Assembly: GCA_903861055.1 (NCBI GenBank)
Contig: CAIOSU010000302.1
Coordinates: forward strand, 1 to 33,942
Direction of reading: 5' to 3'
Source: an uncultured bacterium
GTDB lineage: Bacteria > Bacteroidota > Bacteroidia > Chitinophagales > CAIOSU01
DNA: 33,942 nt
The notes below the pieces were generated by a model. The model was given only the letters and a program-made list of their open reading frames with translations, searched no databases and was not told the DNA's origin. Both the position numbers and the translations under genes were made by a program. Below are positions 2 to 29,156 of the stretch, piece by piece; position 1 is the first letter of the stretch, and every line of letters starts with the position of its first letter.

Positions 2-3000
2 ATTGGTTGTGGCAACCCAACGGGTAGTATTGTAGCAACAGGTTCAGGTGGCTTGCCGGGTTATTTCTATAACATCAACGGAGGACCGTTAAATGGTACC
101 GGTATATTCAATGGTTTAACAGCAGGTTTCTATACCGTTAGAGCGTACGACCAAGGTGGTTGTTTTGCCCTTGATACGGTAACTATCGGTCCTGTACCGG
201 CTATACCACTTACTTTGGTGGTTGACAGCGTAACCTGTTTTGGCGGTAACACGGGTAGGATAACTGCCACAGTAAATGGTGGTACTGCTGGGTATACTTT
301 CAATATTAATAGTGGTGCATACGGTGCTGCCAACGTATTCAACAACTTAACGGCTGGCAGTTACACCATTGGTGTGCGAGATGGAGGTGGTTGTACTGCT
401 ACTGCCGTGGGCATAGTGCGCGCACCAGCCCAACTTACCGCCACTGCCACCGTGGACAGTGTGGACTGTAGCGGCAATGCGGATGGATTTATCGTATTTA
501 CGGCAAGTGGCGGCGTGGCTCCTTATGAATATTCATTAGGTTCAGGCTACCAATCATCCAACATATTTACTGGGCTAGCGGCTGGGGCATTCCCCAATGC
601 TGCGGTACGCGATAGCAAAGGATGTACTTTTAGCATTCCAGTTACGGTAGCGCAGCCAGCTGCGCTGGGCTTAACTGCCGTGCAAGACAGTGTAAACTGC
701 TTTGGTGGTAACACGGGCAGCATTACCGCTACCGCTACTGGCGGCTCAGGTGGCTACCAATATAGCATCAATGGCGGTGCATTTGTATCTTCAGGCATCT
801 TTACGGGTCTTACGGCGGGCACCTACACTATTGATGCGCGCGATTTCAACTTCTGTACCCGCACATTGACCATTAATGTATTGACCCCAACCGATTTAAC
901 CTTATCGTTGGTTGCTGGTAGCGCCGCCTGTGCAGGTGCGGGCGGTGGCCAAATAACCGCAACTGCTGGTGGTGGTTCGCCAGGCTATCAGTATCAATTG
1001 AATGCTGGTGCTTTTGGTCCATCAAATGTATTTACCAACTTATCACCAAATACTTATAATGTAACAGTGCGCGACCAAAACGGTTGTACCGAAACGGCAA
1101 CCATTGCAGTAACAACACCAACTGCTCTAACTGCTACTGCGGTGCAAGACAGTGTTAGTTGCGGTGGTGGTACAAATGGATCGTTAGTAGTTACCGCTAG
1201 TGGTGGTACTCCTAACTATCAGTATAGCATTGATGGCACTAACTTCCAAGTGAGTAATATATTCACCGGATTATCGGCTGGGCCTTATGTGGCAACTGTT
1301 CGTGATGCCAATGCTTGTACCCAAACGGTGAATATAACGGTACTTCAGCCTGTCGCTCTAACTATTGCCACCGTGCAGGATAGTGCCTCTTGTTTTGGGG
1401 CCAGCGATGGGGTCATTACCGTAACAGCGGGTGGCGGCTCGCCAACTTACGAGTATAGTTTGGATGGAACAACCTTCCAACCATCGAACATATTTAATGG
1501 ACGAGCAGCAGGGCCATACACCATTACCATACGCGATGCCCAGTTTTGCCAAATAACGGGTAATATAAGTGTATTGCAACCCACAGTATTGGGGGTTAGT
1601 GCTACTAAAGTAGACGTGAGCTGTAACAGCACCAACGATGGTAGTATTACAGTTACCGCCACAGGGGGTTCTTTGCCTTATAGTTATAATTTGAATGGTG
1701 GCACGCCACAATCGAGCAACTTGTTTAGCAACGTTAGTGCGGCTACCTATACCGTAAATGTGGTTGATGGCAATGGGTGCACACAATCAACAACCATTAC
1801 GGTAGGTTCTACTTCGGGCATTACGATAAGTTTGGTTGCAGATAGCCTATCGTGTAACGGTGCTGCCGATGGGGTAATTACCGTAACCGCTAGCAGTGCA
1901 GCGGGTGGCTTAGAGTATAGTACCAATGGTACCAACTTCCAAGTATCGAATGTATTTAGCTCGCTCAACGCGGGCAATTATACTGTTACGGTTAGGGATG
2001 CCAACCTTTGTGTGGCTTCGGCTAACGTAATTGTCGGTCAGCCTGCGGCTATCACCGCTTCTGCTGTGCAAGACAGCGTAAACTGCAACGGTGGCACTGA
2101 TGGTGTTATTACTGTAACTGCTAGCGGCGGATCGCCAAGCTTTACTTATAGCCTTAATGCCGGCTCCCCGCAAGCGTCAAATGTATTTAACACACTTGGT
2201 GCCGCTAGTTATACTATTGACGTAACCGACCAAAACAGCTGTCAAGCCCAAGTATTGATAGATGTATTGCAGCCAGCGGTGCTTACTGTATCGGCTGCTG
2301 CCACGGCTTCTAGTTGTGCCGGTGGCGGCACTGGTGGTATTGTGGTTACAGCTGGTGGAGGCTCACTTGCTTATGCATATAGTATTGATGGAGTTAACTT
2401 CCAGGCATCGAACACCTTTACCAACTTGGCTTCGGCAACTTATACGGTTACGCTAAGAGATGGCAATAACTGTACCGCAACTACTACCGTAAACGTTGGC
2501 CAGCCAACGGCACTAACTTTAACCTTGGTGCAGGATAGTGTAAGTTGCAACGGCCTAAGCGATGGTACTATTACCGCAACCGCAGGTGGTGGGAATGGGG
2601 TTTATGAGTATAGCTTAAATGGAACCAACTTCCAAGTATCAAACCTATTTACGGCATTGGCAGCTGGGCCATATACTGTAACCCTACGCGATGGAAACGG
2701 CTGTACCCAAACGGCTAGCACCAGCGTATTGCAACCTGCCGTGCTTACTGTAAGCACGGTGGTTATCGATATTAGCTGCAACAGCACCAACGATGGGCAA
2801 ATTACCGCAACTGGTGCAGGTGGCAGTGCCCCTTATCAGTATAGTTTCAATAGTGGTGCCTTCCAAGTGTCGGGCACGTTTGCCAACCTTACGGCCAACA
2901 GCTATACCATTGATGTAAACGATGCCAATGGTTGTGCGGCAAATACAAACGTAACCGTACAAGCGGCAGCACCGGTAACCGTAACCCTAACCCAAGACAG

Positions 3001-4375
3001 TGTAAACTGTAACGCTGGCACCGACGGACAAGTGATTGCGGTAGGTGCAGGCGGAAGCGGTGCCTTGCAATACAGTATTGATGGGGTAAACTATCAAGCT
3101 TTAGGAACCTTCACTGGTCTTACTGCTGCAAACTATACCGTTTCAGTGCGCGACATTGCGGGTTGTAATACTACTGGAAACATAACCGTACTGCAGCCTA
3201 CTGCCCTTAGTGTAACCGCCGTGCAAGACAGCGCCAATTGTTTTGGTGTTGCCGATGGGTTTATTACCGCCACGGGCGCCGGTGGTAGCCCTGGCTATCA
3301 ATATAGCCGCGATGGGGTAACATTTGTACCAACCAACGTACTCAACAACCTTGCCGCTGGGCCATATACCATTACCGTTCGCGATAGAAACAACTGTACC
3401 GCAACGGCCAATGCTACCGTATTGCAGCCAATTGGTATCACTACCAATGTAACGGGTACTAATGTTGATTGTAATGGTGGTACCAATGGTAGCGCAACCG
3501 TTGCTGCGGCTGGTGGTTCGCCGGGCTTTACCTATGCTTGGAACAGCGGTGGTGGCACAGCCACTACCTCGCCAAACCGTGGCGCAGGTTGGGCAGTGGT
3601 AACAGTTACCGATTCACGTACTTGCCAAAGAAGAGATAGTGTGCTTATTACACAGCCAAACGCCATCGTTATTACCGAAACCATTGTGCCCATTACTTGT
3701 GGCAGCGGCAATACAGGCTCCATTAGCCTTGCCGTAACTGGCGGCACTGGTACTTATGGGTTTTTATGGAATACTACGGCTATTGGTCCAACCCTTACTG
3801 GATTGGGTCAAGGCAACTACTCGGTTGTGGTAACGGATTTGAATAGCTGTACCGTTAGCGGCAGCTATGTAATCAACCCTCCTGGAAGTGTGGCGGTAAA
3901 TGCCATCGCCACCAATGTACAGTGTTTCGATACACCTACTGGCTCGGTAAACGCCGTGGTGACTGGCGCTACGGGTTCAGTTACTTACTCATGGAATACT
4001 ACTCCTGCGCAAAATGGTGCAACGGCTAGCAACTTGAGGCCTGGGCAGTATATTGTAACTGTTACCGATGCAGCAGGTTGTACCGCTTTGGATACGGCCA
4101 TAGTAGCCAACGTGCCATTGCTGACAGCATCTGCTGTAGCAGTTAACCCTAGGTGCTACGACACCCCTGATGGAAGTGTAGTGGTAACAGCAGCAGGCGG
4201 CACAGGCAACCTTTCTTACGCATGGAGCCATAGCAGTACGCTTAACTCTGGCAATGCAATAGGATTAATACAAGGTGGATACGCAGTAACCGTTACCGAT
4301 GCCAACAACTGTAGCGTAACGCTGTCAGAAACCCTGACCAGTCCTTCTCAGCTATTCATTTCGTTGGCAGCAAGT
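2..4375 (+). repeat. Array of about 19 tandem ~228-nt (~76-aa) SprB-type coding repeats
   Basis: The Cys...GG..Y.YS...F..SN.F..L.AG.YT..V.D..GC module recurs when the translation is read. The copies are diverged at nucleotide level and are not identical repeats. Confidence 0.85.
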
Positions 4376-4882
4376 GCCGATTCCGTTAAGTTTGGAGAGA
4401 GTGTGCAGCTAACGGCAACCCCAGGCAGTGGCGTTATCGGAACACCTGTTTACGAATGGTCGCCGAATGATAACTTGGATTGTATTGATTGTGCCGACCC
4501 TATGGCTGGCCCGTTAGTAGAATCTTCGTATATCTACACTGTGCGCATAGCCGATGATAATGGTTGCGAAGCCGTGGCTAGGGTAACCGTAGTAGTTGAC
4601 TTGTACGACCGTGTGCTTTGGGTACCAAACGTGTTTACACCGAACGGCGATGGGTTTAACGACGAGTTTAACGTATATGGCTATGGTTTCGAAACCATGC
4701 TATTCCAAGTATTTGACCGATGGGGCGAGAAAATGTTTGAAACCACCGACCCTAAAGTGGGCTGGGATGGTACGTTTAAAGGGGTAGCTATGCCTCCAGG
4801 CGTGTATGTTTTCTTGGTGAAAGCCTTGTACATTGACGGCCAAGAAGGATTCAAAAAAGGTAGCGTAACGATTCTTAAATAA
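2..4882 (+). CDS. Giant SprB-repeat cell-surface adhesin (5' end outside the window) with a T9SS type-B (gliding-motility-associated, CHU_C-type) C-terminal sorting domain
   Basis: Frame 2 is open from base 2, and the first residues (IGCGNPTGSIVATGSGGLPGY) already fit the repeat, so the TTG at 53 in the ORF track is not the real start. There are about 19 tandem ~76-aa modules of the pattern DSVxCxGxxxGxITxTAxGGxxxYxYSxxGxxFQxSNxFxxLxAGxYTVTVRDxNGC. The C-terminus VLWVPNVFTPNGDGFNDEF...WDGTFKG...PGVYVF (about 4601-4879) is the type-B sorting domain. Stop TAA at 4880-4882. Confidence 0.9.
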   Translation: MGCGNPTGSIVATGSGGLPGYFYNINGGPLNGTGIFNGLTAGFYTVRAYDQGGCFALDTVTIGPVPAIPLTLVVDSVTCFGGNTGRITATVNGGTAGYTFNINSGAYGAANVFNNLTAGSYTIGVRDGGGCTATAVGIVRAPAQLTATATVDSVDCSGNADGFIVFTASGGVAPYEYSLGSGYQSSNIFTGLAAGAFPNAAVRDSKGCTFSIPVTVAQPAALGLTAVQDSVNCFGGNTGSITATATGGSGGYQYSINGGAFVSSGIFTGLTAGTYTIDARDFNFCTRTLTINVLTPTDLTLSLVAGSAACAGAGGGQITATAGGGSPGYQYQLNAGAFGPSNVFTNLSPNTYNVTVRDQNGCTETATIAVTTPTALTATAVQDSVSCGGGTNGSLVVTASGGTPNYQYSIDGTNFQVSNIFTGLSAGPYVATVRDANACTQTVNITVLQPVALTIATVQDSASCFGASDGVITVTAGGGSPTYEYSLDGTTFQPSNIFNGRAAGPYTITIRDAQFCQITGNISVLQPTVLGVSATKVDVSCNSTNDGSITVTATGGSLPYSYNLNGGTPQSSNLFSNVSAATYTVNVVDGNGCTQSTTITVGSTSGITISLVADSLSCNGAADGVITVTASSAAGGLEYSTNGTNFQVSNVFSSLNAGNYTVTVRDANLCVASANVIVGQPAAITASAVQDSVNCNGGTDGVITVTASGGSPSFTYSLNAGSPQASNVFNTLGAASYTIDVTDQNSCQAQVLIDVLQPAVLTVSAAATASSCAGGGTGGIVVTAGGGSLAYAYSIDGVNFQASNTFTNLASATYTVTLRDGNNCTATTTVNVGQPTALTLTLVQDSVSCNGLSDGTITATAGGGNGVYEYSLNGTNFQVSNLFTALAAGPYTVTLRDGNGCTQTASTSVLQPAVLTVSTVVIDISCNSTNDGQITATGAGGSAPYQYSFNSGAFQVSGTFANLTANSYTIDVNDANGCAANTNVTVQAAAPVTVTLTQDSVNCNAGTDGQVIAVGAGGSGALQYSIDGVNYQALGTFTGLTAANYTVSVRDIAGCNTTGNITVLQPTALSVTAVQDSANCFGVADGFITATGAGGSPGYQYSRDGVTFVPTNVLNNLAAGPYTITVRDRNNCTATANATVLQPIGITTNVTGTNVDCNGGTNGSATVAAAGGSPGFTYAWNSGGGTATTSPNRGAGWAVVTVTDSRTCQRRDSVLITQPNAIVITETIVPITCGSGNTGSISLAVTGGTGTYGFLWNTTAIGPTLTGLGQGNYSVVVTDLNSCTVSGSYVINPPGSVAVNAIATNVQCFDTPTGSVNAVVTGATGSVTYSWNTTPAQNGATASNLRPGQYIVTVTDAAGCTALDTAIVANVPLLTASAVAVNPRCYDTPDGSVVVTAAGGTGNLSYAWSHSSTLNSGNAIGLIQGGYAVTVTDANNCSVTLSETLTSPSQLFISLAASADSVKFGESVQLTATPGSGVIGTPVYEWSPNDNLDCIDCADPMAGPLVESSYIYTVRIADDNGCEAVARVTVVVDLYDRVLWVPNVFTPNGDGFNDEFNVYGYGFETMLFQVFDRWGEKMFETTDPKVGWDGTFKGVAMPPGVYVFLVKALYIDGQEGFKKGSVTILK

Positions 4883-9377: not shown

Positions 9378-10628
9378 ATGAGATTTATTACATTTTTACT
9401 GATAGCAATTTGTTTTTTGTTGACAAACTCATTGTTAGGTCAAGGAAACGTGGGGGTAGGTACTACCAACCCTAACCCTTCGGCTATATTAGATTTAACT
9501 TCAAGTGATAAAGGGATATTAATACCTCGGCTAACTTCCGCAGAAAGAAACGCCGTAGTTGCTCCTGCTCAAGGACTTTTGGTGTTTGATATATCGGATA
9601 CTACTTTTTGGTATTTCGATGGCATTGTTTGGGTGCAGGCTATTGGCCCGGCAGGTCCTCAAGGTCCTACAGGTCCAGCTGGGGCTAATGGGGCAACAGG
9701 GCCAACTGGCCCTCAAGGCATTGCAGGTGTGACCGGAAGTGCAGGTGCTACAGGATCGACAGGTGCCACTGGATCAACGGGCGCAACAGGTGCGGCAGGT
9801 ACTCCTGGTTTGAATGGTGCCACAGGCGCAACGGGAGCTCCGGGTGCGGTAGGCGCAACAGGTGCAACTGGCGCCACTGGATTAGCGGGTGCCACAGGTG
9901 CAACCGGCGCAACTGGTGCAGCAGGTACTCCTGGTTTGAATGGTGCCACAGGAGCAACGGGAGCTCCGGGTACGGTTGGCGCTACAGGCACTACTGGTGC
10001 AACTGGACTAGCCGGTGCAACAGGTGCCGCAGGTGCAACAGGTCCAGCAGGCGCTACGGGTGCTACTGGCTTAACAGGTGCTACGGGGGCAGCAGGCGCT
10101 ACTGGCCTAACAGGTGCAACAGGACCAGCAGGTTCGGCAGGAACTGGTGGAGCGATATATCTTACTTGGGTAGGCGGTAGTCTATCACCGAATAGTGGTT
10201 CTCTTACTCGTTATTTTACTTGTGCCGACCCTGCCAATAATGCCTCTAACTGGGCAGGTGTGAGCATCATGACTCCTGAAGACAATTCAACTGCTATTGG
10301 AACGACAATAGGGTCGGATAATGAGTGGTTTTGCCCAATGAATGGCACGGCAGTTAAATTATGGCTTTCTATTCAGTTAAATGGCAGCGCCTCTCCTAGC
10401 TCAACAACCTATACCTTCGATTTGTATGACGTAACCACTGCTAGTACTACCGGTTTGAGTATTACCATTACGCACACGGGCAATGGCAATCCAGTATTTT
10501 CCTCTGCCACTGGCTCTGCAGCGTTAATTGCAGGTCGTAGGTATACCATACGCAGTGTTCACAGCGCTGCCGAACTTAGTGGTGTATTATCTGATTGTAA
10601 GTTGGTAGTTGCGTTTACGCCAAATTAA
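9378..10628 (+). CDS. Secreted collagen-like triple-helix-repeat protein with a conserved N-terminal module and a globular C-terminal domain
   Basis: 416 aa. It has a signal peptide ([15 protein letters not shown]), then [17 protein letters not shown]...[24 protein letters not shown], then 56 uninterrupted G-X-Y triplets, then a non-repetitive tail of about 160 aa. Confidence 0.85.
9645..10148 (+). repeat. Collagen-like G-X-Y coding repeat (56 triplets), including a 126-nt tandem duplication at 9789-10040
   Basis: Counted directly from the translation: GPA GPQ GPT ... GSA GTG. The 14-triplet block [42 protein letters not shown] is repeated immediately with a few substitutions. Confidence 0.9.
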
Positions 10629-10990: not shown

Positions 10991-11028
10991 AAAAACAAAA
11001 AGCGGCAGCACAATCATGTGCCACCGCT
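10991..11028 (-). terminator. Rho-independent terminator for the minus-strand monooxygenase-like gene
   Basis: gcggcagcac / gtgccaccgc forms a stem (4+4 bp around a 2-nt internal mismatch) with loop aatcat. On the minus strand it is followed by tttttgttttt. There is also ttttg on the plus side. Confidence 0.6.
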
Positions 11029-11054
11029 TTTGAGTCTATTAAGCTGACGCCTAG

Positions 11055-12731
11055 TTATTCGCTAACCACTATTTTTTGTATGTTTTCGGCGCCATTGAGG
11101 GTGCTTCGTAAGATATATATGCCAGGTGCCAGCATATTAGTAGAAATACGCTGTGCATGGCTGCCTACAGGTTGTTGGCCATTAGTAAGGTTTATCACCT
11201 GCTCGCCTACAAGGTTATACAGGGCCGCTTCCAATTGGCCAGCTTGTTTAAGATCGTAGTAGATGGTAAACTCGCCATTGTTAGGGTTAGGGTAAACCTT
11301 CACAAAGGCATTCACGCCCTCGTTAATGTCGTTTACCGAGCTCACCAAGCTATCGCCTAAAATATATTGTATACCAAGAACCATCATCTCGTCGTCAGAG
11401 GTTAATCCCCATTCTACGGGGTTAGGCCCAGCAGTGTTCAAGAATCTGGCTTCGTGTATAAAACCGTTGCGCGGGTCAACATCAAGCAAAGAGTCATCGG
11501 GGTAATATTTAAACGTTACTTCTGGCCCCCATCGGTAAAAGCCCACTGGGTAGTTGCCTTCGTAGCTATAGTTACCGTCATAAACCATATCGCCTTTAGT
11601 GCCGTCGCTATTGCGCAAAAACACCTCATAACCTACGCCGTATTTGTGGGTGTGTGTGTATATATTCCATATTTTCCAGTTACGCACCTCGTTTGTGTCG
11701 CTGGCTATCGCAGTTATGGTATGCACCTGCCCATCTTGGGGTATTGATATAGTAAGGTCGGGTACGGTGCGCGTATACATGTAGTGTTCGGCAATGCCAG
11801 CTGCTTGGGTATCCACATTTAAGTACAAGTCGGTAGCTAGAATCGAATCTTGATTAGTGTTTTTGATATGCAGGTTCAAGTCAAATACTATGTTTTCGGG
11901 CCAGAAGTAGGCCGTACCTTGAGGCAGTTGGTAGGTTTTTAAACCAGGGCCAGTAGCTATAGGGTTGCGCACAAAAGCGTGCGAGTCGTCAGATGAGCCT
12001 TCGTTTAACCCCCTCAGTCCTTCTCTAAAGTTAACATCTGCACCAGATGAGTATGAATAAATTACAAAATGATGACTCGATTGAGGCATGTAACTCTCAA
12101 TTTTAGTTACTTCAGTACTCGAGCCAAAATCAGGTTTGTATTTAATAAAATACTCTGTTTCGGATGCGGGGCGAACAAAAATACGGCCTAGATATATTTG
12201 CACGCCTGTGCCCACCGCTGGAGGATTGCGTTGACCATAAGTATCATCAATGCCACCATCTCGGTAATAGGCGTTTATAAGCGAAGTATCAACCAATGTA
12301 TCGGCAAACTGTGCCCCGAACAAAATCCATTGTCTTACTAATTCAATCTCATTGTCTGGCAACTTAGCTGCACCATAAGGCATATCTAGGCCTTCATTAG
12401 GCTGTTTTAAATCTAGCGGATCGCTGATGCCATGGGCCATTTTGCGGAGCAAAAAGCTGCGTACTGGGTCGCCTGGCTTAACAAGTTTGTTGGCCGAGGA
12501 TAGTGCCGAAGGATTAACCGGATTGGCATTTACAATGGAATTGTAAAATGCTGTATCTGACAATGTAACATTGAAGGTTGCCGTTGAGCCATTATGACAA
12601 CCTGAGCCGCCACAGGTAGCTTGCAAAAGGTTGTGTACTTTTTGGAAGGTAGAGTTTTGACTAGAACCGGCTAAAGGAAACTGTAATAACACGGCTAGGA
12701 TTAGGCCGGTTAATACTGATAATGATTTCAT
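11055..12731 (-). CDS. Secreted PHM/DBH-like copper type II monooxygenase-fold protein with an N-terminal cytochrome-c-like (PSCyt-type) module and a T9SS type-A sorting domain
   Basis: 558 aa with a signal peptide. The N-terminal module is LLQATCGGSGCHNGS ... MPYGAAKLPDNEIELVRQWILFGA. The His/Met ladder is HH (220-221), H288, HTH (360-362) and MM (449-450), spaced like the PHM CuH/CuM ligands. The C-terminus VKVYPNPNNGEFTIYYDL...GIYILRS...KIVVSE is a type-A CTD. Confidence 0.6.
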   Translation of the reverse strand: MKSLSVLTGLILAVLLQFPLAGSSQNSTFQKVHNLLQATCGGSGCHNGSTATFNVTLSDTAFYNSIVNANPVNPSALSSANKLVKPGDPVRSFLLRKMAHGISDPLDLKQPNEGLDMPYGAAKLPDNEIELVRQWILFGAQFADTLVDTSLINAYYRDGGIDDTYGQRNPPAVGTGVQIYLGRIFVRPASETEYFIKYKPDFGSSTEVTKIESYMPQSSHHFVIYSYSSGADVNFREGLRGLNEGSSDDSHAFVRNPIATGPGLKTYQLPQGTAYFWPENIVFDLNLHIKNTNQDSILATDLYLNVDTQAAGIAEHYMYTRTVPDLTISIPQDGQVHTITAIASDTNEVRNWKIWNIYTHTHKYGVGYEVFLRNSDGTKGDMVYDGNYSYEGNYPVGFYRWGPEVTFKYYPDDSLLDVDPRNGFIHEARFLNTAGPNPVEWGLTSDDEMMVLGIQYILGDSLVSSVNDINEGVNAFVKVYPNPNNGEFTIYYDLKQAGQLEAALYNLVGEQVINLTNGQQPVGSHAQRISTNMLAPGIYILRSTLNGAENIQKIVVSE

Positions 12732-12825
12732 GGGAGTATAGTTTTGATAATGAGGAACTAGATTGGTTTATAGATTTCAATAGGTAATGGCGAATTTAGT
12801 CGTAAATTAACAAGCAATCAACAGA

Positions 12826-12870
12826 TTTTTATCACAAAAACCAAATATTGTTTGATACTTGTGATAAAAA
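12826..12870. repeat. Perfect 12-bp inverted repeat (tttttatcacaa N21 ttgtgataaaaa) in the divergent promoter region
   Basis: Read directly from the sequence. The arms are 12826-12837 and 12859-12870, between the divergent starts at 12731 (-) and 12916 (+). Confidence 0.6.
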
Positions 12871-12915
12871 AAGTGTTTTTTAGCGACAATTATTACTTTC
12901 TAAAAACTATAAACC

Positions 12916-13797
12916 ATGAATTATAATCTACTCCTTGTAGCGGCACTTATGCTACTTGTACCTCGTGTAAATGCCCAAGACACATTAGCAAATAGCGGGT
13001 TTGAAAGTTGGACCAACCAAGGCACTTACGAAGACCTTGCTGACTGGAACACGCTTAATCCGCTATCTAGTGCCCTAGGTGTAATCACGGCTACTAAAAC
13101 CACTGGTGCTGATGTGCATACTGGCTCATATGGATTGAAATTACAATCGAAATCAGTTTTGGGTACCATTCGCCCAGGAGTATTAACCACGGGAGTGATA
13201 AACGTAACCAACTCAACTATTGGTGGTGGCGTGCCTGTAAATTCACGACCAGTTTACCTAAGTGGTTGGTACAAGTATGCTCCTGTAGGTATTGATACTG
13301 CTTTGATTAGCGTTGTTTTTACTAAGTGGGATGCGGTAGGAGATTCGCAGATTATTATTGGTGTAGGTGGGTTTACCGAAACTGGCACAGTTTCAACTTA
13401 TACTCCGTTTTCAGTAGAGATTGATTACCGTTCAGCCGATGTGCCTGATACGGCTTTGATCATTATTACATCGGGTAGCAATTTAGCGCCACAGCTTAAT
13501 AGTGCTTTGATTGTTGATGATGTTGATTTCTCTTACACCGCTGTTGGTATTCTTAATCGGGTAGCAATAGAGCCGATAAGTTTTCATCCTAACCCTGCTC
13601 AAGGTTTTGTTACATTTACCAATTATAATGCCCAACAGCTTAATATACTTTCGTTGGAAGGTAAGCTTGTGTTTACTACAGAGTTGACTGCTGGCCAAAG
13701 TCGCGTTGATTTAAAAGGCTTTACCAAAGGCTTGTATATTTTAAATGCTGTTGACGCAAAGGGCAATGTCCGCTATGGTAAGTTGTTAGTGGAATGA
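12916..13797 (+). CDS. Secreted PCMD-like (putative carbohydrate-binding beta-sandwich) protein with a T9SS type-A sorting domain
   Basis: 293 aa with a signal peptide. NSGFESWTNQ...DWNTLNP...GSYGLKLQS...SRPVYLSGWYKYAP resembles the PCMD family. The C-terminus FHPNPAQGFVTF...GLYILNAVD...GKLLVE is a T9SS CTD. Confidence 0.6.
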   Translation: MNYNLLLVAALMLLVPRVNAQDTLANSGFESWTNQGTYEDLADWNTLNPLSSALGVITATKTTGADVHTGSYGLKLQSKSVLGTIRPGVLTTGVINVTNSTIGGGVPVNSRPVYLSGWYKYAPVGIDTALISVVFTKWDAVGDSQIIIGVGGFTETGTVSTYTPFSVEIDYRSADVPDTALIIITSGSNLAPQLNSALIVDDVDFSYTAVGILNRVAIEPISFHPNPAQGFVTFTNYNAQQLNILSLEGKLVFTTELTAGQSRVDLKGFTKGLYILNAVDAKGNVRYGKLLVE

Positions 13798-15122
13798 AGA
13801 TATTAGATATTATTCTAGTTTTGTTATTAGGGTATAATGTCGTTTTTGGCGCCAAACCCCTTGCTATTGATAGCCTTGCCCAAGGAAGTGCTATTTCCAT
13901 TGGAGGCCCGTTAAATGGCTGCAAAGATTCATTGGTATTGTTTTCCAACACATCAACAACTACTGCTGGTTGGGCTTGGCAATGGACTTTGGTAAAAGGC
14001 TCTGACACTGTCAGGCTTAGCACTACATCGCTGGCATATGCTTTTTATGCTGAGGGCAGCTATAAAGTGTTTCTGCATGGCGATAGTGCAACCTATTTTG
14101 GCGATGATAGCATCATCATTGATATAGCCAATTGTAGAAATGTATGGCCTGGCGATGCAAATATGGATGGCTTAGTAGATGTTGATGATGTGTTTATCCT
14201 TGGGTTTAATTGGGGTGATACAGGTCTGGTGCGTCCAAATGCCTCTGTTGTTTGGATTGAGCAGCCGGCGACAGATTGGGGCAGTTGGTTCAACGGCATC
14301 AACAACAAACATGCTGATACTGATGGTAATGGTGTAATTAATGTAGATGACACACTGGCAATAGCGGAGAATTTTGGCTATGCGGTAAACAAATATGGAG
14401 GGATTATGCACAATGCTCCATTGTTTTTACAGCCAGTAAACAGTAACTGGTATTGTGGAGATGTGGTCAATTATAATATTGTTCTTGGTATTTTAAACAA
14501 TGATGCCGATAACGTTTATGCTCTCTCATTCTACCTCGATTTAGATCCTATTATTTTTGATACTAGTGTTGCCCATATAGACTTAAGCAACTCATGGCTG
14601 GGCAATGCAGGAACCGATGTTTTTAGTTTTAGAAAAATTATTGACACTCGATTGTACATTGCCATTGTGAGCACTACAAGGCAAAATCTTATTGGAAATG
14701 GCCGCATTGGTGGGTTGCACTTGCAAACGATGGCCTCATTGCCACCGGGTTTATCACAAGATTACTATTTAGCTGTGCCGAGCGGCATTAAAGGAAAAAT
14801 GGCCAACGGAACTGAACATACTTTCAGCTCACAGATTTCCGAAATATACATAAAAGATACGCTCACTGGCACCAATAATCGAACGCAAGTGGGTTCTGTA
14901 AAGCTGTATCCTAACCCAGTTGGCGAGGTATTGAATATTAGTTTTCCGGTTGAAAAGCAATGGCAAATATTGTTAACCGATATGGCAGGAAACAAGATAA
15001 TGAACGAAATGGCTAAGTTCCGCGATTATTCCCTCAACCTTAAGAATTTGAGCAGTGGGCTTTATTTGTTGCACCTGAATAATGAGGAGAGTGCTATTGT
15101 AAAAAAAGTAATGGTGGAGTAA
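13794..15122 (+). CDS. Secreted Ig/PKD-like + dockerin-like + cohesin-like protein with a T9SS type-A sorting domain
   Basis: 442 aa. Its ATG overlaps the upstream stop (ATGA at 13794-13797). It has two EF-hand-type loops, DANMDGLVDVDD and DTDGNGVINVDD (about 14145-14381). The C-terminus VKLYPNPVGEVLNISF...GLYLLHL...KKVMVE is a T9SS CTD. Confidence 0.6.
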   Translation: MKILDIILVLLLGYNVVFGAKPLAIDSLAQGSAISIGGPLNGCKDSLVLFSNTSTTTAGWAWQWTLVKGSDTVRLSTTSLAYAFYAEGSYKVFLHGDSATYFGDDSIIIDIANCRNVWPGDANMDGLVDVDDVFILGFNWGDTGLVRPNASVVWIEQPATDWGSWFNGINNKHADTDGNGVINVDDTLAIAENFGYAVNKYGGIMHNAPLFLQPVNSNWYCGDVVNYNIVLGILNNDADNVYALSFYLDLDPIIFDTSVAHIDLSNSWLGNAGTDVFSFRKIIDTRLYIAIVSTTRQNLIGNGRIGGLHLQTMASLPPGLSQDYYLAVPSGIKGKMANGTEHTFSSQISEIYIKDTLTGTNNRTQVGSVKLYPNPVGEVLNISFPVEKQWQILLTDMAGNKIMNEMAKFRDYSLNLKNLSSGLYLLHLNNEESAIVKKVMVE

Positions 15123-15127
15123 TTTCC

Positions 15128-15859
15128 TTACCCCTCCAGCACCAACCGAAACCCCATGTTGGATGTACGGTGGTGCCTGCTGTTAATATTACGGGCCTGA
15201 TTGTAGCAACGTTCAGAAGCGCTTTTCCAAGAGCCACCGCGCACAACCCTATAAAAGGCTTTCTTTGTGTTCAATGGATTGGCAGCAGGGCTACGCTTGT
15301 AGTAGCTACCGGCAAACCAATCGCTGCAAAGCTCCCACACGTTGCCTGCCATATCGTATATGCCCAGTTCGTTGGGCTTAAGTTCGCCTATTGGGTGGGT
15401 AATGCCTCCAGCATTGCTCACGTTCCAGGCCACGTCATCGAGCTTGTTGCTGCCAGGGTAGGTAAACCCTTTACTTTTGTTGCCGCCTATAGCGGCATAT
15501 TCCCATTCGGCTTCGGTAGGTAGCCGGTATTTTTTGCCGGTTAGGGCATTCAATTTAGCTATAAAAGTGTTAATGTCGGCAGGTGTGGCTTGCTCTACTG
15601 GGCATTTGCCGCAGGTATTAAAGGTGGCAGGGTTGGTGCCCATTACGGCCACCCATTGGTCTTGGGTTATTTCGTATTTGCCAATATAAAAGCTGCGGAG
15701 CGTAACAGCGTGAACCGGTATTTCCTTTTTGGTGCCCTCTGACGTGCCCATCTGAAAAGTTCCACCCTCAACAAAAACCATCTCGGGCTCGGCAATTTGA
15801 GCCAATAGTTGTGTTTGGATCAAAAAAATCGTCAACCAGAAGTATAAACGTACTAACAT
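15128..15859 (-). CDS. Secreted FGE-sulfatase (SUMF1/EgtB/PvdO) fold protein, probably not a true formylglycine-generating enzyme
   Basis: 243 aa with a signal peptide. MVFVEGGTFQMGT, YRLPTEAEWEYAA, GNVWELCSDW and VVRGGSW...NMGFRLV are the family hallmarks. Only one Cys sits in the segment that holds the catalytic Cys pair in FGE. Confidence 0.8.
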   Translation of the reverse strand: MLVRLYFWLTIFLIQTQLLAQIAEPEMVFVEGGTFQMGTSEGTKKEIPVHAVTLRSFYIGKYEITQDQWVAVMGTNPATFNTCGKCPVEQATPADINTFIAKLNALTGKKYRLPTEAEWEYAAIGGNKSKGFTYPGSNKLDDVAWNVSNAGGITHPIGELKPNELGIYDMAGNVWELCSDWFAGSYYKRSPAANPLNTKKAFYRVVRGGSWKSASERCYNQARNINSRHHRTSNMGFRLVLEG

Positions 15860-16964: not shown

Positions 16965-17729
16965 ATGATGACATCTTTCAGCCTAAAAGGCAAAATAGCA
17001 TTGGTTACGGGTTGTAACAAAGGTATTGGCAAGGCCATGGCCATCGGTTTGGCCGAAGCGGGTGCCGATATTATTGGAGTATCGGCCACTATGCCCACAT
17101 CGGGCAGCGATGTGGAGCAGCAAGTAACAGCTTTGGGTAGGAAGTATTTTGCCTATGCCGCCGATTTATCTAACCGCGAGGCTTTGTATGCCTTCATTAA
17201 AAAGGTAAATGAAGCGCACCCGATAATCGATATTCTCATTAATAATGCTGGCACCATACTGCGCAAACCTGCTGCCGAGCACCCCGATGAGTATTGGGAC
17301 CAGGTATTGGCCCTAAACCTTGATACACCCTTTATCCTAGCCCGTGAGTTTGGTAAGCAGATGATTGAGCGTGGTTCAGGTAAAATCATTTTCACGTGCT
17401 CGTTGCTTACCTTCCAAGGGGGCATTACGGTGCCGGGCTATGCGGCCAGCAAGGGTGCTTTGGGTAGCTTGGTAAAAGCATTGGCCAATGAGTGGGCGGC
17501 TAAGGGCGTAAACGTAAACGGGATTGCACCGGGCTACATTGCCACCGACAATACAGAAGCCCTGCGCAACGACAAGGAACGCAGTGCCTCCATCTTATCG
17601 CGCATACCGGCTGGTCGTTGGGGTAACCCAGATGACTTTAAAGGTGCGACCGTATTTTTGGCTTCCAGTGCTGCCGATTATGTACACGGCACCATACTTA
17701 CGGTTGACGGCGGCTGGATGGGTAGATAG
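16965..17729 (+). CDS. kduD: 2-dehydro-3-deoxy-D-gluconate 5-dehydrogenase (SDR family)
   Basis: 254 aa. It has LKGKIALVTGCNKGIGKA (TGxxxGxG), the catalytic YAASKGA (YxxxK), a KduD-like overall pattern, and kduI as its neighbour. Confidence 0.85.
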   Translation: MMTSFSLKGKIALVTGCNKGIGKAMAIGLAEAGADIIGVSATMPTSGSDVEQQVTALGRKYFAYAADLSNREALYAFIKKVNEAHPIIDILINNAGTILRKPAAEHPDEYWDQVLALNLDTPFILAREFGKQMIERGSGKIIFTCSLLTFQGGITVPGYAASKGALGSLVKALANEWAAKGVNVNGIAPGYIATDNTEALRNDKERSASILSRIPAGRWGNPDDFKGATVFLASSAADYVHGTILTVDGGWMGR

Positions 17730-17794
17730 TTGAAATTGAAAAGAATTGGATTTTCATAGAGATTATTGATTAAAATATAAAAAACAAAACGCCA

Positions 17795-18625
17795 ATGGAT
17801 ATTAAGTTTAGTTCAAGTCCGGCAGAAGTGAAAGGAATGGATACCGCAGCATTGCGCAACCATTTTTTGATTGGTGCCTTAATGAAGCAGGATGAAGTAA
17901 CGCTTACCTATACCCATTATGATAGGTTGATTGTGGGCGGCATAGCGGCTACCCACAAAACCACACCCTTGACTGTGGAGGCCGAACTACGTGCTGATTA
18001 CTTTCTGGAGCGCAGGGAGTTGGGCATCATCAACGTAGGAGGAAAAGGCATTGTAACTGCCGATGGCGTGAGTTATGAGCTGAATAAACTGGATGCCTTG
18101 TATCTGGGCAAAGGCACCAAGGAGGTAACTTTTAAGGCTGCTGATGGCAGTGCGCCTGCTTACTTTTATCTGATGTCGGCACCGGCGCACCACACGCACC
18201 CCAATCGCAAAATGACCAAAGAAGAAGCATCGCCGGTAAACCTTGGCGATGTGGCCACGGCCAACAAGCGCACCATATACAAGTACATACACTTAGAGGG
18301 TATACAAAGCTGCCAATTGGTGATGGGCCTAACTACCTTGGAAGATGGCAGTGTTTGGAACTCCGTGCCACCGCACACCCATACGCGCCGCACAGAGGTG
18401 TATTTCTATTTCGATGTACCTTCTGACCACCGTGTGTTCCATTTTATGGGCCAACCCACGGAAACCAGGCATCTGGTAATAGCCAACCATGAAGCGGCTA
18501 TTTCGCCACCATGGTCGGTGCACTTTGGTTCGGGCACGGCCAATTATGGCTTTATATGGGCTATGGCTGGCGAAAACCTCGTTTTCAGTGATATGGACCC
18601 TGCGCCTGTGGCTAGCTTGCTGTAG
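17795..18625 (+). CDS. kduI: 5-dehydro-4-deoxy-D-glucuronate isomerase (4-deoxy-L-threo-5-hexosulose-uronate ketol-isomerase)
   Basis: 276 aa. It has a cupin metal-site region PPHTHTRRTEVYFYF and an N-terminus typical of KduI (SP.EVK.MDT..LR..FLI). Confidence 0.9.
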   Translation: MDIKFSSSPAEVKGMDTAALRNHFLIGALMKQDEVTLTYTHYDRLIVGGIAATHKTTPLTVEAELRADYFLERRELGIINVGGKGIVTADGVSYELNKLDALYLGKGTKEVTFKAADGSAPAYFYLMSAPAHHTHPNRKMTKEEASPVNLGDVATANKRTIYKYIHLEGIQSCQLVMGLTTLEDGSVWNSVPPHTHTRRTEVYFYFDVPSDHRVFHFMGQPTETRHLVIANHEAAISPPWSVHFGSGTANYGFIWAMAGENLVFSDMDPAPVASLL

Positions 18626-18629
18626 CGAT

Positions 18630-19679
18630 TTACCTTTGCACTCGGCCGCTGCCGTCACCCTTTAGCAAATCGTTTACTTCGGCCAGGGTAGCATGGTTAA
18701 AGTCGCCGGGAATGGTGTGTTTCAGCGCTGCCGCAGCTACACCAAACTCTGCCGCTTGTGCCATCGGCATACCCGTTACCAGGCCATAAATCAATCCGCC
18801 AGCAAAGGCATCGCCGCTGCCAACCCGGTCCACAATGCGTACTTCGTATTTTTTGGTGTGGTAAAATTCGTTACCATCATACACCAAGGCACTCCAACCA
18901 TTATCAGAGGCACTATGGCTTTCGCGAAGGCTTGATGCGATTATTTTAAACCCAAACTTGGCCTTCATCTGCTCACAAACTGCCTTATAGCCCTCCAAAT
19001 CCAGCTCGCCTTTGGTAACATCGGTACCTGCTGCTTTAAAGCCTAAGCTATTGTCTGCATCTTCCTCATTACCGATACAAACATCTACATACTGGCAAAG
19101 GCGGGTCATCACTTCACGTGCTTTATCCTTGCTCCATAATTTTTTGCGGTAGTTTAGGTCGATGCTGGTAGTAATGCCTTTAGCCTTGGCTGCCTTAAGG
19201 GCGGCTTCGGTGAGTGCTGCCCCTTTATCGCTTAGGGCTGGGGTAATACCCGTAGTATGAAACCAAGTGGCTCCTTCAAAAATCGCATCAAAATCAAATT
19301 CGCTCACCTCAGCTTCAGCAATAGAAGCCCCGGCCCTATCGTAAATTACTTGCGAAGCCCGCATAGAGGCACCCGTTTCCAGAAAGTAAATACCCAAGCG
19401 TTGGCCCCCACGGGCTATAAACTGCGTATCCACGCCAAAGCGCCTTAAATGGTTGATGGCCGCTTGCCCCAAGGGGTTATTGGGTACGCGGGTTACAAAA
19501 GCACCGTTCAACCCATAGTTGCTCAACGATGCGGCCACATTGGCTTCGCCGCCGCCGTAGGTTACGTCAAAGCTATCCGTTTGCACAAACCTATCGAACC
19601 CAGGGGTAGAAAGTCGCATCATTATTTCGCCGAGGGTAACTACTTTATGGGGCATATTAATGGTTTTTATTAGTTTCAT
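18630..19679 (-). CDS. kdgK: 2-dehydro-3-deoxygluconokinase (PfkB family sugar kinase)
   Basis: It has VVTLGEIMMRLS at the N-terminus and the PfkB signature DRVGSGDAFAGGLIYG. The start is either ATG 19679 or, more like homologs, ATG 19655 (MPHKVVTLGE). Confidence 0.88.
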   Translation of the reverse strand: MKLIKTINMPHKVVTLGEIMMRLSTPGFDRFVQTDSFDVTYGGGEANVAASLSNYGLNGAFVTRVPNNPLGQAAINHLRRFGVDTQFIARGGQRLGIYFLETGASMRASQVIYDRAGASIAEAEVSEFDFDAIFEGATWFHTTGITPALSDKGAALTEAALKAAKAKGITTSIDLNYRKKLWSKDKAREVMTRLCQYVDVCIGNEEDADNSLGFKAAGTDVTKGELDLEGYKAVCEQMKAKFGFKIIASSLRESHSASDNGWSALVYDGNEFYHTKKYEVRIVDRVGSGDAFAGGLIYGLVTGMPMAQAAEFGVAAAALKHTIPGDFNHATLAEVNDLLKGDGSGRVQR

Positions 19680-19745
19680 GCATTCGCTTTACAAAAGAAA
19701 GGATTTACCCTCATTATTAATAGCCCCATAGCGAACGAGCCCTTT

Positions 19746-20414
19746 ATGGAAAACAAGGCATTTATTACTGACTTAATTGTGCAACAAGGCATTTTGCCCC
19801 TATACTTTTATAAGGATACTACCGTGAGCATTGAAGTGCTGCGGGCATTGTACGCCGCGGGCATCCGCACGGTGGAGTATACCAACCGTGGCGAGGATGC
19901 CTTAAGAAACTTTGTGGCCATGCGCCAAGTGTGCGACACCGAGCTAAAAGGCATGCACTTGGGCATTGGCACCATCAAAAATGCCGATGCCGCACAAGCG
20001 TTTATTGATGCCGGTGCCGATTATTTGATTAGCCCGGGTTTGGTGGAGGAAGTGGCTGCGGTGGCCGACAAGTACAACATGCTTTGGGTGCCCGGCTGCA
20101 TGACCCCAACCGAAATTATCAGTGCCGAAAACTTGGGGGCTAAATTGATCAAGCTTTTCCCGGGCAACCTATTAGGACCAGAGTTTTTATCGGGCATTAA
20201 AGCTATTTTCCCTGGGTTGTTGTTTATGCCCACAGGTGGCGTTGAGCTTGAGAAAGAGAACATTGGGCAATGGTTTAAGGCGGGTGTATGTGCCGTGGGC
20301 ATGGGCAGCAAGCTTATTACCAATAAATTGCTCGAAACCCGAGATTACCAACAAATAACCGCCAATACCAAGGCAGCCATTGAAATAGTACAATCCGTTA
20401 AACAGACACTATGA
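19746..20414 (+). CDS. eda: Bifunctional 2-dehydro-3-deoxy-phosphogluconate / 4-hydroxy-2-oxoglutarate aldolase
   Basis: 222 aa. EYTNRG, GIGTI, ISPG and the Schiff-base region LIKLFPG are KDPG-aldolase hallmarks. Confidence 0.88.
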   Translation: MENKAFITDLIVQQGILPLYFYKDTTVSIEVLRALYAAGIRTVEYTNRGEDALRNFVAMRQVCDTELKGMHLGIGTIKNADAAQAFIDAGADYLISPGLVEEVAAVADKYNMLWVPGCMTPTEIISAENLGAKLIKLFPGNLLGPEFLSGIKAIFPGLLFMPTGGVELEKENIGQWFKAGVCAVGMGSKLITNKLLETRDYQQITANTKAAIEIVQSVKQTL

Positions 20415-21712
20415 ACGCAACGAAACCTACCTACTACCGTTGGGTAATATGTGCCTTGATATTTTTTGCCACTACCATCAACTACGTTGACCGCAGTGTT
20501 ATCAGCTTCCTCAAGTCGACGTTTACCGAAGAGCTGGGTTGGACCGATGCCGACTATGCCAACATTGAAATAGCCTTTAAGGTATTTTATGCCATTGGTT
20601 TGCTTGGCGCTGGCCGAATAGTGGACAAATTGGGCACACGGCACGGTTATGCGCTTTTTGTGTTTTTATGGAGCTTGGCGGGCACGGCCACGGCATTTGT
20701 GAGCACGTTGTTTGGTTTTCAGGTCATGCGGGGCGCACTGGGCCTTACCGAAGCAGGTAACTTCCCTGCCGCCATCAAAAGCGTGGCGGAGTGGTTCCCG
20801 AAGCGCGAGCGGGCATTGGCTACTGGTATCTTTAACTCGGGTGCCAATATTGGGGCCATTATTACGCCACTTACCATACCGTTTATCATCATTACTTGGG
20901 GCTGGCACTATGCCTTTGTATTGTCGGGTGCGTTGGGTTTTGTATGGCTGGTGCTATGGCTGGTGTTTTACCAATTGCCGCGCAATAGCAAGTATGTCAG
21001 CACTGCCGAGTTGGCCATTATTGAAAGCGACCAAGACGAGGAACCCGAAACCGACACCTCGCCAAAACTTACTTGGTTTCAGTTGCTCCAATTTAAGCAA
21101 ACCTGGGCTTTTGCTATCGGTAAGCTGCTCACCGACCCTATTTGGTGGTTCTACCTATTTTGGTTGCCCGATTTCTTTGAAAGCACCTACCAAATGAAAA
21201 TTACCGCTACCAGTTGGCCTGTAGCTGCGGTGTATATTATATCCACTTTTGGAAGTATTATGGGTGGGTGGTTGCCACTCTACCTGATACAGCAAAAAGG
21301 CTGGACCGTGCCGAAGGCGCGCCGCATCAGTATGCTCATTTATGCCCTTTGTGTCTCGCCTATCGTTTTTGCTTTGATACTCGGCTCCATCAATATGTGG
21401 TTGGCCGTGGCGGTTATTGGCTTAGCGGCTGCCGGCCATCAGGCTTGGAGCGCCAACATCTTCACCACCGTGAGCGATATGTTCCCTAAGAACTCCACCG
21501 CATCGGTGGTGGGCATTGGGGGCACGTTTGGCGCTATCGGTGGTATCTTGCTGAGCCAGTTTGTACAAAAAACGTTGTTCACCCACTTTAGGAGCATCGG
21601 CCAAATAGAAACCGCCTACTACATTATGTTTGCCATCTGCGCCGGTGCCTACCTCAGTGCCTGGGTAATCATGCAGCTATTGGTGCGCAATGCGGGTAAG
21701 GTGAAAGCGTAG
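20411..21712 (+). CDS. exuT: MFS transporter, hexuronate/anionic-sugar (ACS/ExuT-like) type
   Basis: 433 aa with about 12 helices and MFS motif A (GAGRIVDKLGTRHG). Its ATG overlaps the eda stop (ATGA at 20411-20414). The substrate is inferred from context only. Confidence 0.75.
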   Translation: MNATKPTYYRWVICALIFFATTINYVDRSVISFLKSTFTEELGWTDADYANIEIAFKVFYAIGLLGAGRIVDKLGTRHGYALFVFLWSLAGTATAFVSTLFGFQVMRGALGLTEAGNFPAAIKSVAEWFPKRERALATGIFNSGANIGAIITPLTIPFIIITWGWHYAFVLSGALGFVWLVLWLVFYQLPRNSKYVSTAELAIIESDQDEEPETDTSPKLTWFQLLQFKQTWAFAIGKLLTDPIWWFYLFWLPDFFESTYQMKITATSWPVAAVYIISTFGSIMGGWLPLYLIQQKGWTVPKARRISMLIYALCVSPIVFALILGSINMWLAVAVIGLAAAGHQAWSANIFTTVSDMFPKNSTASVVGIGGTFGAIGGILLSQFVQKTLFTHFRSIGQIETAYYIMFAICAGAYLSAWVIMQLLVRNAGKVKA

Positions 21713-21873: not shown

Positions 21874-22773
21874 TCACTTCTTGCTTCTTCTTTCGCCCTT
21901 CTTGTCTATTGGTTTTTCTACTTGCGGCAAACCGTTTAACGCGTCTTTGGCATTTAGTGCCGTTACCACCTTCTTGCCGGTTTTGGCCTCTAGTTCTTGC
22001 CTTGCCACCTTGGCTACATTTCCGCCTTGGGCAGCCACTTTCTTGCTTTCTTCAAAATCCTTCGGGCTTACTGCAACCGATATGTCTTTCGTAGATGCTT
22101 CTGCTAGCATATTCAAAATTAACTCGGTGTTAGTCATGTTGTCACGCAGGTTTTCCTTCTTTAAGCCCTTCAATACCTTATACTCTTTGGTGGTTTTGTC
22201 GCTCCATGCTTTGGTAATAATATCGGTAAGGGTGGCAAATTGAATACCCTCTTGTAGCCCTCGCTTTTTCCATTCGTCTGTCAGCTCTTTTCTAACCTCG
22301 ATGCTTTTAATCCGCTGGTTGATCCAGTTTTCGGAGTAGCCCAGTTGCAGGTATTGCTCTAAGGCCCTATCGATGCTTAGTTCGGGGTCTTGCAGTTCGT
22401 CTAACCTTTCGGAAGCTACACGAGCCAGCCAAAGTTTAAATGGCTCGGCCTTAGGAGAAGGTATGGATTGAATGAGGCGGAAAAGTTGCTCGGTATCGGC
22501 CACATCGGTTTTGTAGTATTTACCATCTGCCGATTGCATTTTCAGTTGACTACAATTTGTAGTCAACTGGCTACCTTCTCCTTTTAGCCTTGTTTTTAGT
22601 ACACTCCAATATTTTCTTGGATTGGGGCTATCTGTAAGCACCGCCACCACATCCACAATAGATATGTACCATTTTTCTTGCTCCGCATCCCAAAGGGTTC
22701 GCACTTGCTTTTCTTCGAACAACTTTATGGCGGTTATTTCCTTATTCACGATATGCTGTTTGTATAATTTCAA
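21874..22773 (-). CDS. Bro-N domain protein (prophage-antirepressor-like) with a DinD-like C-terminal half
   Basis: 299 aa. VRTLWDAEQEKWYISIVDVVAVLTDSPNPRKYW and IQSIPSPKAEPFKLWLA are the Bro-N-type core. KGLKKENLRDNMTNTELILNMLAE resembles E. coli DinD (KGLKKNQKILDHMGSTELAANLF). The start is not an ATG: it is TTG at 22773 or GTG at 22749. Confidence 0.8.
   Translation of the reverse strand: MKLYKQHIVNKEITAIKLFEEKQVRTLWDAEQEKWYISIVDVVAVLTDSPNPRKYWSVLKTRLKGEGSQLTTNCSQLKMQSADGKYYKTDVADTEQLFRLIQSIPSPKAEPFKLWLARVASERLDELQDPELSIDRALEQYLQLGYSENWINQRIKSIEVRKELTDEWKKRGLQEGIQFATLTDIITKAWSDKTTKEYKVLKGLKKENLRDNMTNTELILNMLAEASTKDISVAVSPKDFEESKKVAAQGGNVAKVARQELEAKTGKKVVTALNAKDALNGLPQVEKPIDKKGERRSKK

Positions 22774-26819: not shown

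Positions 26820-29156
<2,337 letters not shown>

Follow-up and report, generated by a model that had tools for sequence, protein, structure and literature searches.

A predicted PHM/DBH-fold copper protein with a cytochrome-c-like domain and a type IX secretion signal in uncultured Bacteroidota

Two-copper oxygenases of the peptidylglycine alpha-hydroxylating monooxygenase (PHM) and dopamine beta-hydroxylase (DBH) type make noradrenaline and amidated hormones in animals. Together with tyramine beta-monooxygenase (TBM), they are the textbook non-coupled binuclear copper enzymes: one electron is delivered to a first copper, CuH, and transferred to a second, CuM, some 11 A away, where O2 is activated and a C-H bond is hydroxylated. 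In the animal enzymes the electrons come from ascorbate or cytochrome b561, and their route to CuH and onward to CuM remains a matter of debate. To our knowledge, PHM, DBH, and TBM are known almost only from eukaryotes, and our full-text literature searches turned up neither a bacterial PHM/DBH-type enzyme nor a fusion of one to a cytochrome. Here we describe a gene on a stretch of 33 942 nucleotides from an uncultured member of the Chitinophagales (Bacteroidota; contig CAIOSU010000302.1, assembly GCA_903861055.1), hereafter the window. The gene is predicted to encode a secreted cytochrome-c-like/PHM-fold copper protein with a C-terminal sorting domain (CTD) of the type IX secretion system (T9SS), and on balance this protein is probably a three-module extracellular monooxygenase, in which electrons would pass from haem to CuH to CuM. 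The minus strand is the coding one, since the plus-strand translation of the same interval is full of stops:

11055 to 12731, minus strand: whole gene, encoding 558 residues, with an ATG start and the stop codon at 11055-11057, from the list of open reading frames (ORFs).

The copper core, residues ~146-465, shows the two-domain PHM/DBH fold in an AlphaFold2 model made from 46 aligned sequences (pLDDT 86.9, pTM 0.77) and compared by Foldseek with the PDB:

11802 to 12296, minus strand: PHM-like N-subdomain (CuH domain), residues ~146-310, from Foldseek and hhalign; the boundaries are approximate and follow the secondary structure of the model.
11337 to 11801, minus strand: PHM-like C-subdomain (CuM domain), residues ~311-465, from PF03712 in relatives, Foldseek, and hhalign.

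PHM and DBH entries fill ranks 1-31 of the Foldseek search (E 1.7e-13 to 2.8e-8); their 304-345 aligned columns cover both subdomains, and the matches below rank 31 are much weaker. Template modelling (TM) scores on the target are mostly 0.55-0.65, and lower for the longer DBH chains; identity to PHM in these alignments is 14-18%. A profile comparison by hhalign leads to the same fold. The family core aligns with a PHM family profile, made from 24 aligned relatives of the rat PHM catalytic core (PDB version, residues 45-356), over 255 columns with a probability of 86% and E 4.9e-6, and all six copper ligands fall in matched columns. A single PHM sequence gave a correct local alignment with a probability of only 3%, thus it is the replacement of that sequence by a family profile that makes the hhalign evidence convincing. 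Hence the PHM/DBH fold proposed in a preliminary description of this DNA is borne out by both approaches, the Foldseek comparison with PHM having returned significant matches. In addition, PF03712 (Cu2_monoox_C) matches 17 of the 46 relatives (best E 1.5e-7) and is a precomputed annotation on homologs P0083, P0086, P0090, P0098, and P0111. A phmmer search of PDB sequences returned only GFP fusion proteins (E 0.007-1), which we dismissed as chance.

Within this core, the six metal ligands of PHM find their counterparts one by one. The counts below, as well as all later conservation counts, come from an alignment of 243 full-length family members:

12069 to 12074, minus strand: H220-H221, equivalent to PHM CuH ligands H107/H108; each kept in 243/243 and matched to the PHM-family HH by hhalign.
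11868 to 11870, minus strand: H288, equivalent to PHM CuH ligand H172; 242/243, aligned with the His of LQVHY.
11646 to 11654, minus strand: H360-T361-H362, equivalent to PHM CuM ligands H242/H244; 242/243 for each His, aligned with the HTH of PHM.
11385 to 11390, minus strand: E448-M449, equivalent to PHM E313-M314, the Met being the thioether ligand of CuM; E in 243/243 and M in 242/243.

These positions were already listed as a ladder in the preliminary description, which named no strand, and translation of sub-ranges confirms them; its spacings of 67, 72, and 87 residues are correct, and the segment that it had likened to the HTHHLGK motif of CuM is IYTHTHKYGVGY at residues 357-368. It had left the choice between M449 and M450 open, and here only one half stands: M449 is kept in nearly every member, whereas position 450 is Met in only 185/243. 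Around M449, TSDDEM of this protein aligns with TSSDEM of PHM in the hhalign comparison. The conservation pattern is equally telling. Just 11 columns of the whole protein are conserved at >=99%, nine of them inside the 324-residue core, with the copper ligands accounting for six of the nine; E448 (PHM E313), N291, P270, W135, and S92 are further columns among the most conserved. As a rough figure, randomly placed conserved columns would strike all six ligands with a chance of about (9/324)^6, or ~5e-10. On this comparative evidence the pattern is far beyond chance, and the six His/Met residues are the predicted equivalents of the CuH (His3) and CuM (His2Met) ligands of PHM, retained across the relatives as the preliminary description had expected of genuine ligands.

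Ahead of the copper core lies a domain whose layout the preliminary description had compared to the planctomycete-type cytochromes c (PSCyt), with an unusual haem-attachment site:

12297 to 12659, minus strand: cytochrome-c-like N-domain, residues 25-145, from weak cytochrome hidden Markov model (HMM) matches (TIGR03806 on the N-domain of the window protein, E 1.4e-4).
12594 to 12614, minus strand: CGGSGCH (CX4CH), residues 40-46, putative haem c attachment site, from the conserved CXnCH.
12378 to 12383, minus strand: M117-P118, putative distal (sixth) haem ligand, from conservation and alignment with the axial-Met region of cytochrome c6.

The attachment site indeed reads CX4CH, and its two cysteines are the only ones in the whole protein. 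Both C40 and C45 are kept in 239 of the 243 members and H46 in 238, and the spacing between the cysteines varies: CX4CH in 131, CX2CH (the canonical CXXCH) in 70, CX3CH in 33, CX5CH in two, and CX6CH in one. The distal Met-Pro is present in 209 members (Met alone in 212), its Met giving way to Cys, a known haem ligand, in some others, and a few more have a nearby His, as is typical of real haem sites. Five full-length members without the CXnCH motif have lost the Met-Pro as well and keep all six copper ligands; these (P0122, P0145, P0151, P0160, and P0242) are natural "cytochrome-dead" variants and would be useful controls.

Profile searches of the N-domain point in the same direction. TIGR03806, the SO2930 dihaem cytochrome c family, matches 39 of 44 isolated N-domains through its second haem domain (profile positions ~211-311; best E 6.2e-9) and the window protein at the E value given above for the N-domain alone, or at E 0.0011 for the whole protein. 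In Pfam the 44 N-domains match Cytochrome_CBB3 (23), PSCyt1 (19; best E 2.7e-4), Cytochrom_C (13), and the CTI haem region (10), and any Pfam family matched by more than a few of them belongs to the c-type cytochromes or binds haem; in NCBIfam one unrelated lipoprotein family (LIC11213) also matches 19. The whole window protein has a weak match to the haem region of fatty-acid cis/trans isomerase and none to PSCyt1 (PF07635), and the PSCyt1 matches of its relatives are sub-threshold. Thus the cytochrome-like character has support from sequence, whereas PSCyt1 is one of several weak matches and not the best of them. Searched against PDB sequences, the N-domain profile gives marginal matches to FoxE (E 0.009, the best) and to many cytochromes c6, whose haem motif and axial-Met segment align with C..CH and MP, respectively; the isolated N-domain is modelled with a pLDDT of 91.8. 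Attachment motifs of the CX3CH and CX4CH kinds have precedents in haem c proteins (PMC11492766; cytochrome c3 in PMC10454114). Because the CXnCH motif is kept, its spacing varies through the canonical form, and motif and Met-Pro are lost together, the N-domain is very probably a monohaem c-type cytochrome.

Export is the most straightforward part of the architecture:

11058 to 11297, minus strand: type-A T9SS CTD, residues 479-558, from PF18962, TIGR04183, and matches to CTDs in the PDB.
12660 to 12731, minus strand: Sec-type signal peptide, residues 1-24 (MKSLSVLTGLILAVLLQFPLAGSS), read by eye from the sequence; the cleavage site is putative.

The type-A CTD, as first described, scores 44.5 bits with PF18962 (E 1.9e-11; cut-off 27) and 37.8 bits with TIGR04183 (E 1.4e-9; cut-off 23), and it is the only part of the protein to exceed curated cut-offs in a direct scan of Pfam and NCBIfam. 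On inspection the N terminus is hydrophobic and looks like a typical Sec signal peptide. Four more proteins with a T9SS CTD are encoded in the window. A 1609-residue protein at 53-4882 (plus strand), which carries a type-B (CHU_C) T9SS signal domain together with 14 SprB repeats, is a surface adhesin of the gliding-motility type and confirms that T9SS is in use in the host.

The protein belongs to a large and nearly anonymous family. A protein database clustered at 90% holds 313 homologs, each either without a name or labelled "T9SS type A sorting domain-containing protein"; the core profile finds at least 950 representative clusters at 50% identity (E<=1e-3), 236 of them at E<=1e-30, and the GTDB species genomes hold 280 loci. 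Taxonomy and neighbourhoods were counted on the best 80 of these 280 GTDB matches, which represent 79 distinct loci. All 80 are from Bacteroidota metagenome-assembled genomes (MAGs), assigned to Flavobacteriales, Chitinophagales, Sphingobacteriales, or simply "Bacteroidia", and come from lakes, soils, bogs, and groundwater. In almost every full-length member among the 150 representatives listed, the first residue of the core is ~135-155, hence the N-terminal module is a constant part of the architecture; longer members carry Ig-like, PKD, or SprB spacers inserted ahead of the CTD. Tandem paralogs are frequent, in two to four copies (four in L048, 1955-9560; also in L057, L021, and L060), and several MAGs have three or more copies on different contigs (L025, L076, and L084 in RH-23may17-764, for example). 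The MAG of the window itself has two further copies on another contig (L060). An identical copy of the gene (100% over its length) lies on contig CAMDKI010000003.1 of a freshwater Bacteroidota MAG labelled "Chitinophaga pinensis MsE-30jul19-192" (locus L007).

One neighbour recurs in this family:

12916 to 13797, plus strand: conserved neighbour, a 293-residue PCMD-domain ("putative carbohydrate metabolism domain", PF13201) protein with its own T9SS CTD, from Pfam.

Its orthologs (35-40% identity) adjoin homologs of the copper-protein gene in four independent contexts. A strong match to this partner lies at most 414 bp from the copper-protein gene in 33 of the 79 loci, either divergent upstream or co-directional downstream. 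Of the 29 loci that most resemble the query, 26 have it as an adjacent gene; among the three that do not, two have almost no flanking sequence. Since longer versions add SprB repeats or PKD/Ig spacers ahead of the CTD and carry no catalytic domain, the PCMD partner is likely a surface-displayed binding module; a literature search on the PCMD domain yielded nothing useful. All-against-all clustering of the flanking ORFs found, beyond this partner and the paralogs, other clusters in at most nine loci. In the window, the start of the next gene (13794-15122, plus strand) overlaps the stop of the PCMD gene; it encodes a 442-residue T9SS-CTD protein with two Asp-rich dockerin/EF-hand-like repeats (DANMDGLVDVDD and DTDGNGVINVDD), and this gene, co-transcribed with the PCMD partner, was not found beside homologs in the other loci.

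How might these parts work together? The Sec signal peptide would take the protein to the periplasm, where haem would probably be attached covalently to C40 and C45, with H46 as the proximal and M117 as the distal ligand, and where copper would be loaded into two mononuclear sites. The type-A CTD would then direct the folded protein through T9SS to the cell surface or the medium and be removed. Outside the cell, the haem c domain may take single electrons from an outside donor and hand them to CuH (H220, H221, and H288), from which they would cross the interdomain cleft to CuM (H360, H362, and M449), the presumptive site of O2 activation and of hydroxylation of a substrate C-H bond. The fused cytochrome would thus be the electron entry point that replaces the supply by ascorbate or cytochrome b561, and the PCMD partner, a surface beta-sandwich, would probably provide substrate recognition, binding or presenting what may be a glycan or some other polymer.

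Compared with PHM (rat PAM core, PDB 1PHM/1SDW/3MLL; PF01082 and PF03712), the protein has the same two-subdomain beta-sandwich fold, column-matched CuH His3 and CuM His2Met sets with similar spacings, and the conserved Glu before the Met ligand (TSxDEM). It differs from PHM in the low identity and the missing direct Pfam match, in having none of the disulfide cysteines of PHM, and in a spacer between HxH and Met that is 17 residues longer. Moreover, unlike that of PHM, its core is joined to a cytochrome-c-like domain on one side and a T9SS CTD on the other, and it is a bacterial and presumably extracellular protein outside any ascorbate or cytochrome b561 context. DBH, TBM, and MOXD1 (PDB 4ZEL; Foldseek ranks 23 and 25) share the catalytic fold and ligands and likewise have a further domain N-terminal to the copper core. 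That of DBH is of the DOMON type, which binds haem b in some other proteins, whereas the N-module here is a helical, c-type cytochrome-like domain with CXnCH rather than a DOMON beta-sandwich, and the dimerisation domain of DBH is absent. For the N-domain the closest relatives are the SO2930/HNE_0200 dihaem cytochromes of TIGR03806, with the related PSCyt1 and Cytochrome_CBB3-type monohaem domains; the N-domain has in common with TIGR03806 the layout CXnCH ... MP ... L..E..V..WI..GA. However, only one of their domains is found here, at 21 bits against a family cut-off of 313, with CX4CH in place of CXXCH and in fusion with a copper enzyme. The cytochrome of cellobiose dehydrogenase that feeds lytic polysaccharide monooxygenases (LPMOs) is similar in concept only, as an extracellular haem domain serving a copper oxygenase that attacks an external substrate. 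The folds are unrelated, the LPMO copper site is a histidine brace rather than His3 plus His2Met, haem and copper are on one chain in our protein, and there is no evidence of polysaccharide activity for it.

Several results weigh against a haem-fed copper monooxygenase and have to be set beside those above. The window protein has no direct match to PF01082 or PF03712 in Pfam (to the latter not even at E<=10), and PF01082 (Cu2_monooxygen) matches none of the 46 relatives, so that the equivalence of the N-subdomain is carried by structure and profile-profile alignment only; of the two copper-domain models named in the preliminary description, PF03712 was therefore recovered in relatives and PF01082 nowhere among them. 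With family profiles, searches of PDB sequences missed PHM altogether and reached DBH no better than E 1.1. All cytochrome HMM scores are below curated cut-offs, and Foldseek of the isolated N-domain model returned nothing significant, with cytochromes only at E 6-9. In the neighbourhoods of the 79 loci there is no other conserved redox partner, and no extracellular electron donor for the haem domain was identified. Furthermore, R240, N316, and Y318 of PHM, which we take to hold the peptide carboxylate and backbone, align with Y358, V451, and G453, position 358 being variable in the family, and hence PHM chemistry is not directly transferable. One may argue from the non-canonical motif, the sub-threshold cytochrome matches, and the fruitless Foldseek search that the copper monooxygenase core is real and the N-domain haem-free, its cytochrome fold having degenerated into a structural or docking module with C40 and C45 joined in a disulfide or binding a metal, and small reductants feeding CuH instead; the few members that lack the motif and keep their copper sites would mean that the core can work without it. 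This is unlikely, though worth keeping in mind, given that C, C, and H are each kept in 238-239 of the 243 members and the distal Met in 212, that 70 relatives have the canonical CXXCH, and that Met is lost together with the motif or is replaced by Cys; moreover, CX4CH is an established haem c motif (PMC11492766). In a different role, the protein would be an oxidase or electron sink rather than a hydroxylating enzyme: the haem might be reduced by, for example, Fe(II), humics, or phenolics, O2 would be turned into H2O2 or water at the copper sites, and the outcome would be extracellular oxidation of metals or organics or the production of reactive oxygen species. In favour of this, Fe(II)-oxidising FoxE heads the PDB sequence matches of the N-domain profile, the CTD places the protein outside the cell, no recognisable PHM substrate-binding residues are carried over, and PHM-type sites can reduce O2 uncoupled from hydroxylation. 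Yet the FoxE match is marginal, the strict His2Met site of CuM with its adjacent Glu is a signature of hydroxylating enzymes, and tandem paralog arrays with a linked binding-type protein suggest diverse organic substrates, which makes such an oxidase improbable.

The two remaining explanations concern the core. A true bacterial ortholog of PHM, acting on glycine-extended peptides, might be expected from PHM entries as the top structural matches and from the shared TSxDEM and HTH motifs, but it is very improbable at an identity of 14-18%, with the three substrate-holding residues replaced and the first of their positions variable, with two cysteines in total and thus no PHM disulfides, and with no peptidyl-alpha-hydroxyglycine lyase partner seen in the neighbourhoods. 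Because the carboxylate-binding residues of PHM are absent, we regard the protein, on its alignments, as a member of a distinct subfamily of the PHM/DBH fold whose substrate is not a glycine-extended peptide, and not as a peptide-amidating enzyme. The core might also do no copper chemistry at all and instead use its double jelly-roll for hydrolysis or as a scaffold for binding, like PNGase F, a Bacteroidota protein that shares the PHM/PNGase F superfold. A PNGase (9vla) does appear at Foldseek rank 32, and the domain name of the linked partner points to carbohydrates. However, this sole PNGase match is poor (TM 0.23, root-mean-square deviation 24 A, E 1.2e-7 against 1.7e-13 for PHM), and a non-metal scaffold leaves unexplained why six of the 11 most conserved columns are PHM copper ligands; hence we give this idea hardly any credence.

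The fold and metal sites are of an already known kind. New are the fused cytochrome-c-like domain, the T9SS route out of the cell, the absence of the peptide-binding residues of PHM, the PCMD partner linked to the gene, and, among the best 80 GTDB matches, the restriction to uncultured Bacteroidota. The predicted fused c-type haem domain would be a built-in and spectroscopically visible electron donor, and the family would thus offer a tractable natural system for the debated electron route of PHM, DBH, and TBM. It would also represent an unexplored class of predicted oxidative enzymes secreted by uncultured Bacteroidota of fresh water and soil, and it is a candidate for a haem protein that leaves the cell by type IX secretion; to judge from the PCMD partner and the tandem paralog arrays, its substrate range appears diversified. 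A bolder and rather doubtful proposal is that the protein and its PCMD neighbour form a self-contained extracellular oxidative system, in which the partner presents a polymer (glycan, humic, or aromatic) and the haem-fed PHM-type enzyme hydroxylates or cleaves it. Were this true, these freshwater and soil bacteria would have an LPMO-like capability on an unrelated fold, and the first natural electron wire from cytochrome c to CuH to CuM.

The gene appears to be a transcription unit of its own, bounded by two features:

10998 to 11031, minus strand: terminator-like hairpin, a 15-bp stem and T-run 24 nt past the stop codon, from a consensus scan only.
12732 to 12915, no strand: divergent intergenic region of 184 bp, common to the gene and the PCMD partner.

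Because of the hairpin 3' of the stop codon and the divergently transcribed upstream neighbour, the gene looks monocistronic. The hairpin is likely an intrinsic terminator and lies between two convergent genes; no promoter can be assigned in the intergenic region, where a sigma-70 scan stayed at background level. The convergent gene (9378-10628, plus strand) encodes a secreted protein with long Gly-X-Y collagen-like triple-helix repeats (PF01391, E 1.5e-25).

Other genes of the window are recorded here for completeness. At 15128-15859 (minus strand) lies a gene for a 243-residue FGE-sulfatase-domain protein (PF03781, E 1.2e-46), a family that includes copper-dependent oxidases; no link to the copper-protein gene was seen in the other loci. 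The genes at 16965-21712, encoding a KduD-like short-chain dehydrogenase/reductase, KduI, a PfkB sugar kinase, KDPG aldolase, and a major facilitator superfamily transporter, are a catabolic set for hexuronates or unsaturated uronates. Beside recR, at 21874-22773 (minus strand), a protein with a Bro-N domain is encoded, and such proteins are often associated with phages or mobile elements. Finally, the gene at 26820-29156 (plus strand) encodes a 778-residue two-domain haem peroxidase (PF00141 twice) of the KatG catalase-peroxidase type.

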